Shown here piece after piece: positions 4,619 to 5,101 of a stretch of DNA of 64,000 nucleotides (the first letter of the stretch is position 1; every line of letters begins with the position of its first letter). This DNA is from Escherichia phage 92CQ. The stretch lies in sequence record PV682554.1. One strand, written 5' to 3'. The translations under genes were made by a program, and so were the position numbers. The notes beneath the pieces are model-generated. The model searched no databases, had not been told where the DNA came from, and saw only the letters and a list, made by a program, of their open reading frames with translations.

Positions 4619-4796
4619 AAAAGATTCCGGTTGTTTTGAATAATTAAGAACGGTAGATTGGTGAAATGGTAGCCACAACAGTTTGCTAAACTGTCGTCGG
4701 AAACGGCGTGTAGGTTCAAGTCCTACATCTACCGCCAAGTTATCTTTAATGTAGCTTGTACTCTTACTTTAGCAGAGTAAATCTTCGGCAAGTGGC
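4619..4796 (+). repeat. 178-bp direct repeat, copy 1 (contains tRNA-Ser GCT)
   Basis: Read as identical base-for-base to 4924-5101 (offset 305 bp). Confidence 0.8.
4652..4737 (+). tRNA. tRNA-Ser (anticodon GCT), type II
   Basis: Acceptor GGTAGAT/ATCTACC, anticodon arm ACAGT-TTGCTAA-ACTGT, variable arm CGTCGGAAACGGCGT, T-arm GTAGGTTCAAGTCCTAC, 3' GCCA. Confidence 0.6.
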
Positions 4797-4923
4797 TGAA
4801 TTATAAAACTATTGGACAGGTTGTTACCGGAGTTAAGATTGTAGATAATAAAGTTGTTTATGAGTATTCTAATCTTCAACAATCTGAAGATGGTAAAAAT
4901 ATTCGTATGGTAAAAGCAGAACA

Positions 4924-5101
4924 AAAAGATTCCGGTTGTTTTGAATAATTAAGAACGGTAGATTGGTGAAATGGTAGCCACAACAGTTTGCTAAACTGTC
5001 GTCGGAAACGGCGTGTAGGTTCAAGTCCTACATCTACCGCCAAGTTATCTTTAATGTAGCTTGTACTCTTACTTTAGCAGAGTAAATCTTCGGCAAGTGG
5101 C
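4924..5101 (+). repeat. 178-bp direct repeat, copy 2 (contains duplicate tRNA-Ser GCT)
   Basis: Perfect copy of 4619-4796. Confidence 0.8.
4957..5042 (+). tRNA. tRNA-Ser (anticodon GCT), duplicate copy
   Basis: Identical sequence to 4652-4737, inside repeat copy 2. Confidence 0.6.

Follow-up and report, generated by a model that had tools for sequence, protein, structure and literature searches.

A genome-private 178-bp duplication doubles tRNA-Ser(GCT) and ends inside a conserved, putative non-coding RNA in the phi92-like Escherichia phage 92CQ

Local segmental duplications generated by illegitimate recombination or template switching are known in virulent phages, the duplications of the T4 rII region being the classical case. 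In E. coli, 178-bp repeats are found downstream of tyrT; these carry only a 3' fragment of the tRNA, and they are old and diverged. Type I toxin-antitoxin pairs with an antisense RNA that overlaps at the 3' end include txpA/RatA and bsrG/SR4. The record of phage T5 (NC_005859) annotates stable RNAs of unknown function in its tRNA cluster (RNAI, RNAIII, RNA1, RNA2 and others), and such tRNA-cluster RNAs are presumably released by tRNA-type processing. Phage PhiTE encodes pseudo-ToxI, an RNA mimic of the ToxIN antitoxin (PMC3594212). The abi/ibf locus of plasmid ColIb aborts infection by T5, the classical abi-sensitive phage, and by BF23; membrane potential is lost in the process, and neither the products of the locus nor its mechanism have been identified so far (PMC10644984).

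Within the window, by which we mean the whole 64,000-nucleotide stretch of Escherichia phage 92CQ DNA that was analyzed, a repeat search recovered two 178-nt copies at 4619-4796 and 4924-5101 that are 100% identical and lie 305 nt apart from start to start. An earlier note on this DNA had reported identical 178-bp repeats here, each with a tRNA-Ser(GCT), and both observations were reproduced: self-comparison gives 178/178 matching positions, and ARAGORN and Rfam each recognize the tRNA gene in either copy (54.2 bits for both in Rfam). Each tRNA-Ser(GCT) copy is complete, including the encoded CCA. The pair is the sole long perfect repeat in the window, and a perfect repeat of this length cannot have originated by chance. 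The features of the locus are listed below.

4472..4501, + strand: sigma-70-like extended -10 promoter, TTGACA-18-TAGAGT with TG present (motif match)
4517..4606, + strand: tRNA-Ser(TGA), the unchanged left neighbour (ARAGORN; aligned with relatives)
4607..4619, + strand: remnant of the gp111 translation-initiation region (..CAACTAGGA; alignment with relatives)
4619..4796, + strand: repeat copy 1, read as the inserted copy (repeat search, ARAGORN, alignment with relatives)
4619-4643, + strand: last 8 codons and stop of gp111, inside repeat copy 1
4652-4737, + strand: tRNA-Ser(GCT) inside repeat copy 1 (ARAGORN)
4738-4796, + strand: 5' 59 nt of the structured RNA, in repeat copy 1
4796..4948, + strand: gp111 homologue, 50 codons, PHROG 22441, without a Shine-Dalgarno (SD) sequence and with CTG in place of ATG (alignment, tblastn)
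4924..5101, + strand: repeat copy 2, read as the original, in its ancestral context (repeat search, ARAGORN, alignment)
4957-5042, + strand: tRNA-Ser(GCT) inside repeat copy 2 (ARAGORN)
5169..5244, + strand: tRNA-Lys(TTT), the unchanged right neighbour (ARAGORN)

Two other repetitive stretches can be seen elsewhere in the window. Positions 41315-42069 consist of 9-nt-periodic AAAGGTGAT-type repeats that code for collagen-like Gly-X-Y, presumably in a tail-fibre or structural gene, and a 115-nt direct repeat with 72% identity (54424-54538 and 55410-55524, 986 nt apart) probably reflects paralogous genes or domains.

Megablast of the region places the window among the phi92-like coliphages (Justusliebigvirus, Stephanstirmvirinae). 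The best local match is phage Eryne at 98.6%, and the closest relatives are about 98.5-98.9% identical over 25 kb; the phage collection searched does not include the window's own genome among its records. Four records deposited as "Campylobacter phage" A150, A145, C3 and A110a (MG065639, MG065645, MG065656 and MG065689) are about 96% identical to the phi92-like coliphages here, and are probably mislabelled or contaminant genomes.

The ancestral arrangement was read from base-level alignments with four relatives at first and with 12 later. In phi92, muut, Eryne, PATM and eight others, tRNA-Ser(TGA) is followed by 18 nt containing the SD, the 153-nt gp111 ORF, 8 nt, tRNA-Ser(GCT), a spacer of 126-182 nt and tRNA-Lys. 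The earlier note had proposed that related phages be compared for a single copy and an intact ORF at this site, and it had asked whether they might instead share the arrangement without ever having had an ORF. All 12 aligned relatives carry one tRNA-Ser(GCT) and an intact small ORF, namely gp111 with its SD and ATG.

The frame that runs through the intervening 127 bp (4797-4923) is open from 4781 to a TAA at 4946-4948 and reads IFGKWLNYKTIGQ...KDSGCFE*. As previously stated, this frame lacks a start codon: the ORF list holds no ATG, GTG or TTG ahead of codon 36, counted in the gp111 frame. It had been interpreted as the 3' remnant of a gene, an interpretation that the alignment corrects, since the 127-bp segment, joined to the opening 25 nt of repeat copy 2, makes up the complete 153-nt homologue of Phi92_gp111, in which only the first base of the ORF has changed (ATG to CTG). 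The loss is limited to the A of the ATG and 5 nt of the SD-to-start spacer. Because the SD and the ATG are lost, gp111 is probably silent here, and annotators should be aware that the homologue in this genome is a start-less pseudogene. The view that a recent duplication had disrupted a gene stands, whereas the excision of a mobile element, offered as another possible cause, does not, as the same ORF occupies the site in 12/12 relatives.

gp111 is a 50-aa, genus-restricted ORFan whose PHROG (22441) is annotated as function unknown and in which no Pfam domain was found. Full-length tblastn matches occur in 50 Justusliebigvirus records, all with at least 94% identity. Polymorphisms among relatives comprise three synonymous and six nonsynonymous changes; the latter include G12* in phiWec187 (L007), where codon 12 has changed from GGA to the premature stop TGA and the ORF is unannotated. 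This nonsense codon is a predicted second, independent loss of gp111. The gene looks dispensable, and its loss would be cheap for the phage because the ORF appears to be without purifying selection and carries a nonsense codon in one relative.

The ancestral initiation region reads CAACTAGGAGCTTTATG. At base level, the ancestral ...CAACTAGGAGCTTTATGAATTAT... corresponds in the window to ...CAACTAGGA, followed by the 178-bp copy and then by TGAATTAT.... The left junction lies at 4618/4619 (AGGA/AAAG), with a possible microhomology of 1 nt (A), and the right junction at 4796/4797 (GTGGC/TGAATTAT, that is GTGGC/TGAAT), with none. The inserted copy replaces the 6 bp GCTTTA, which are the SD-to-start spacer and the A of the gp111 ATG, for a net gain of 172 bp. 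The donor segment starts 25 nt ahead of the gp111 stop and ends 59 nt past tRNA-Ser(GCT), at GTGGC/AGTAACCAC. Repeat copy 1 thus interrupts the ancestral context, while repeat copy 2 sits within it.

When 121 nt spanning the right junction served as the query, 109 phage records were hit, in every case by two permuted segments at a distance of 305 bp. For the left junction (91-nt query) there were 72 matching records, each aligning in two segments at a distance of 134 nt; both halves of this query are 100% identical to EC.P2, W22, PD114 and others. Exact 24-mers of both junctions were absent from IMG/VR, the JGI metagenomes and the GTDB genomes. Since neither junction was found in phages or in these three collections, the duplication arrangement is, by these comparisons, private to the 92CQ genome. 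The copies show 0/178 differences, which supports the earlier claim of a recent event, "recent" being a reading of this zero divergence only, in a genome whose closest relative is ~98.6-98.9% identical over 25 kb. The same claim had allowed for ongoing gene conversion, which is at odds with the single copy in every relative; an old duplication homogenised by gene conversion is likewise unlikely, two copies being present in no relative.

The donor segment ends inside a structured element that fills most of the spacer between tRNA-Ser(GCT) and tRNA-Lys. Its parts are listed below.

5043..5165, + strand: structured RNA of ~123 nt with a four-way junction (folding, covariation, covariance model)
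5043-5059/5149-5165, + strand: outer stem
5069-5085, + strand: hairpin 1
5090-5118, + strand: hairpin 2, loop 5101-5106
5129-5148, + strand: hairpin 3
5068..5129, + strand: core of the structured RNA, 59/62 identical to IncI1/ColIb-type plasmids

The last position of repeat copy 2, 5101, is the base that opens the loop of hairpin 2 (stem 5095-5100/5107-5112); what repeat copy 1 retains of the element, in 4738-4796, is the 5' strand of the outer stem, hairpin 1 and, of hairpin 2, the 5' half. The complete element folds with a minimum free energy of -34.3 kcal/mol (z = -4.0). In an alignment of 16 sequences from four phage groups, 98% of cells are paired and seven pairs have changed on both sides, for a structure (outer stem of 17 bp, hairpins of 7, 10 and 6 bp) that was derived partly from the same 16 sequences; the observed value was reached in 0/500 shuffles, and slid controls gave 0-1. 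One covarying pair appears as AU, CG, GC and UG, and compensatory changes accompany the conservation of hairpin 2, where the breakpoint falls. In this alignment, frequent G.U pairs are a feature of the + strand only, and the covariance model scores 137.7 bits on the + strand of the window versus 27.7 bits on the - strand. The truncated element in repeat copy 1 (scored over 4738-4850) reaches 39 bits.

Homologues of ~115-130 nt were found in 175 phage records, among them Justusliebigvirus, Phapecoctavirus, Vequintavirinae and about 27 T5-like phages (loci at 5043-5165 of the window, L016 689-813 and L017 ~686-800, and in L020, L021 and L024-L028), and a pattern scan of IMG/VR for further copies returned two loci only. 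In the examined copies with annotated tRNAs, the element shares its strand with the tRNA genes and is embedded in their cluster, in most cases immediately ahead of tRNA-Tyr. Rfam 15 gave no match to it at E<=1 in a 4-kb scan, and only noise (E>=5.9) when the element was submitted alone. Neither the RNA nor an abi antisense was described in the literature searched, whose coverage lies outside the abi/ibf papers of the 1980s in Plasmid and MGG. We propose that 5043-5165 is a conserved, structured, putative non-coding phage RNA that was previously undescribed.

An extra module of 44-53 nt (hairpins 1' and 2', Avunavirus type), inserted into the structured RNA, is carried by PATM (L004 1274-1440), VEcB_OZ (OZ035773, L012 698-873) and one IMG/VR contig (L022 7214-7389), where it creates a tandem pair of hairpin-2 variants. 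Because relatives show further indels at this site, the extra hairpin module included, the tRNA-Ser(GCT)-tRNA-Lys spacer reads as a rearrangement-prone hot spot of indels and module shuffling.

By megablast, the core of the structured RNA is present in 154 E. coli genomes, on plasmids in 152 of them, and it also occurs in 460 PLSDB plasmids, including ColIb-P9 (NC_002122); matching plasmid loci are L014 (4001-4085), L015 and L029-L031. There it runs antisense to the final ~20-28 codons and the stop of a 114-aa ORF that many NCBI records and UniRef name "abortive infection protein"; across ColIb-P9/IncI1 and IncF plasmids, identity between the core and this 3' end is 95-100%. This Abi ORF has a hydrophobic core at aa 44-86 and was assigned to no family in PADLOC, NCBIfam or Pfam, and no known RNA was found in the plasmid abi locus. 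When the 8-kb plasmid locus was compared by blastn with the window and with positions 15-65 kb of T5, the structured RNA was the sole match, and it was found in the window only.

The matches differ by allele. Against the IncI1 allele, identity is 59/62 for the window, 76/78 for phAPEC8 and 58/58 for Antha and PaulScherrer, and the stretch 4763-4796 in repeat copy 1 is identical to the abi 3' end at 34/34 positions. phi92 matches the IncF allele, which carries a phi92-type hairpin 2, at 56/58 positions (93% over 70 nt), versus only 50/58 for IncI1. No phage closely matches the Klebsiella and Leclercia alleles (81-86%). The 114-codon frame is kept in diverged alleles that are 77-82% identical (IncF, Leclercia and K. 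oxytoca). A TTGACA-N17-TAGCGT sequence on the abi antisense strand, a motif match only, is conserved in four alleles and sits in the loop of a covarying hairpin. This hairpin, downstream of the abi stop (GATGGTGA..TCACCATC; L014 3925-4000 and L029-L031), is conserved in four diverged plasmids with compensatory changes in Leclercia; the TTGACA lies at L014 position 3965. An antisense promoter and a structure of the 3' UTR are both possible readings of it.

As a tentative reading, which we hold to be possible rather than probable, the core of the structured RNA might pair with the 3' end of the abi mRNA and silence it, acting as an antisense counter-defence or as a type-I-like antitoxin mimic. 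If so, the allele-specific matches (the window and phAPEC8 with IncI1, phi92 with IncF) would be footprints of an arms race, and the indels, the module duplications and the 178-bp duplication would be by-products of frequent recombination at the locus. Neutral gene conversion between phages and plasmids with short flanking homology is also a possible explanation for the abi match. We disfavour a sensor model, in which the abi mRNA would detect the phage RNA and fire: T5, which ColIb aborts, has no copy of the structured RNA in its tRNA region (positions 15-65 kb, covariance model, none at E<=10) and is yet the classical abi target, although this argument is less telling for other phages. How ColIb aborts infection by T5 and BF23 has been an open question since the 1960s-70s, and phages with and without an abi-complementary RNA, or with differing alleles of it, offer a natural test set.

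The promoter motif at 4472-4501 belongs to a family that recurs at 3763, 4332 and 5944, and no terminator-like site was found on the + strand between it and 6589. A single transcript from this predicted promoter probably spans tRNA-Ser(TGA), the two copies of tRNA-Ser(GCT), the structured RNA and tRNA-Lys/Tyr/Asn/Thr; both tRNA-Ser(GCU) genes are expected to be co-transcribed because of the upstream promoter and the lack of a terminator-like site before 6589. In the 56 ORFs of the window, AGT and AGC together account for 21.5 per 1000 codons and for 34% of Ser codons. A dosage benefit of tRNA-Ser(GCU) for AGY decoding is unsupported, and is not indicated because AGT+AGC make up only 21.5 per 1000 codons.

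Two further tRNA-like sequences lie in this part of the cluster. Positions 4372-4450 give an Rfam tRNA match of 40 bits, above the gathering score, and are not called by ARAGORN; the equivalent in PATM is annotated as tRNA-Undet, and inspection by eye shows an anticodon loop with TCT (Arg-like) and a variable region of unusual length. ARAGORN calls tRNA-Ser(TGA) at 4517-4606, whereas the phi92 record marks this gene as a pseudogene, and its best Rfam match is tRNA-Sec at 35.3, below the gathering score of 47.

Copies that are identical at 178/178 positions, together with novel junctions that share at most 1 nt of homology, point to an intragenomic duplication. We consider it likely, with a probability of roughly 0.75, that the arrangement is a real, very recent and genome-private self-copy joined by illegitimate recombination or template switching. 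Under this proposal, 178 bp of the phage's own DNA, running from 25 nt before the end of gp111 through tRNA-Ser(GCU) to nt 59 of the structured RNA, would have been copied and inserted 133 bp upstream of its source, replacing GCTTTA between the Shine-Dalgarno sequence and the TG of the gp111 start codon. The joining would have occurred by illegitimate recombination or replication template switching, and not by homologous exchange, because homology at the junctions amounts to only 1 nt and 0 nt. At its right end, the donor stops within the loop of a hairpin that is stable and conserved, and such a loop would be a plausible point for stalling or switching. The self-copy is probably neutral or transient, and recombination between its 178-bp repeats would collapse the locus to one tRNA copy and delete gp111.

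We would favour a single concerted double template switch (a templated insertion), since two independent rare events without an intervening substitution are less parsimonious; this preference is an argument from parsimony, and the sequence is compatible with both one step and two. The two-step path, which we judge to be a credible but rather unlikely course of events, would begin with a 305-bp tandem duplication (junction GTGGC/TGAAT) whose unit is gp111, tRNA-Ser(GCT) and 59 nt, followed by a 133-bp deletion in the left unit (junction AGGA/AAAG). Each of these steps is a classical single-junction event, the left junction has its 1 nt of microhomology inside A-runs, and the predicted end structure is identical to that observed. 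However, on this path the locus must have undergone two rare events without a single substitution in the interval, and neither the full-tandem intermediate nor a deletion-only genome was found in the searched collections.

It is improbable that the duplication has been kept by selection, either for the supply of tRNA-Ser(GCU), whether in AGY decoding or in outrunning a tRNA-targeting defence, or for an extra 34-nt abi antisense. Both tRNA copies are intact within one promoter-driven unit, repeat copy 1 does carry the 34/34 match to the abi 3' end as antisense (4763-4796), and phage tRNA clusters are described as counter-defence loci (van den Berg 2023, as cited in PMC10644984). Against this, AGT+AGC usage shows no special demand, two copies were seen in no other Justusliebigvirus examined, and the element in repeat copy 1 stops in the middle of hairpin 2 and lacks an outer stem, so that processing like the full RNA is unlikely. 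The self-copy is probably neutral or transient, and recombination between its 178-bp repeats would collapse the locus to one tRNA copy and delete gp111.

We also doubt that the arrangement is an assembly or library artefact that is absent from the phage DNA. It is known from one genome alone, and its right junction falls in the loop of a hairpin, a place at which template switching by polymerases can also happen in vitro. However, collapse or expansion of a repeat yields at most one new junction, and two novel ones are needed here (AGGA/AAAG and GTGGC/TGAAT); the stretch between them is otherwise colinear and error-free, and a mixture of wild type with a 133-bp deletion would give a bubble in the assembly graph and not an edge from the repeat (D) to the unique segment (U) of the D-U-D arrangement.

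A larger former gene, such as the homing endonuclease suggested in the earlier note, or a mobile element of which the frame would be the 3' remnant, is very improbable: homing endonuclease genes do lie among the T5 tRNA genes, but gp111 is full-length here (50/50 codons aligned) and matches no Pfam domain, relatives carry the 153-nt ORF and nothing bigger at the site, and Rfam finds no intron or ribozyme family there, with no intron family in 3500-7500 that might indicate a mobile intron. An integrase-type att duplication was rejected as well, as the entire tRNA has been copied and the intervening 127 bp are the native gp111 that is present in all relatives.

By itself, the duplication matters little and is an ordinary one-off rearrangement, a snapshot of a phage tRNA cluster that gains a tRNA copy and loses a small ORFan in one step. 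The interest of the locus comes mainly from the end of the duplication, which lies inside an undescribed RNA that is antisense to an unsolved abi gene.

This RNA can be compared with three kinds of known system. Like the T5 stable RNAs and the species 1/2 RNAs of T4, it is a structured RNA of ~100-140 nt, encoded among tRNA genes and on their strand; it shares no homology with the T5 stable RNAs (covariance model, T5 15-65 kb, E<=10). As with pseudo-ToxI of PhiTE, sequence from part of a plasmid abortive-infection locus recurs in a non-coding RNA of a phage, and changes of copy number and sequence in the phage region are the expected route of adaptation. ToxI, however, is a type III antitoxin that binds protein and consists of 36-nt repeats in tandem, whereas the structured RNA is antisense to the 3' end of a toxin-like ORF, which corresponds to a putative type I logic. 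As in txpA/RatA and bsrG/SR4, a gene for a small hydrophobic protein has its 3' end covered by a structured, complementary RNA. Unlike in those pairs, the Abi protein, at 114 aa, is longer than typical type I toxins, and the complementary RNA is encoded by a phage, the antisense promoter on the plasmid being a motif match only.

The duplication itself shares with the tyrT repeats the presence of direct repeats beside a tRNA gene, unequal exchange and an altered tRNA gene content; it differs from them in that the whole tRNA is doubled, the copies are 100% identical and the arrangement occurs in one genome. Among its counterparts are the duplications of the T4 rII type, in which identical direct copies also lie a few hundred bp apart with 0-1 nt of homology at the junction, occur in a single isolate and are expected to be unstable through recombination between the copies. 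Unlike those, the 92CQ duplication is no simple head-to-tail tandem, as 178 of 305 bp are doubled and a double switch or a second deletion is required, and one of its ends lies in the loop of a conserved RNA hairpin.
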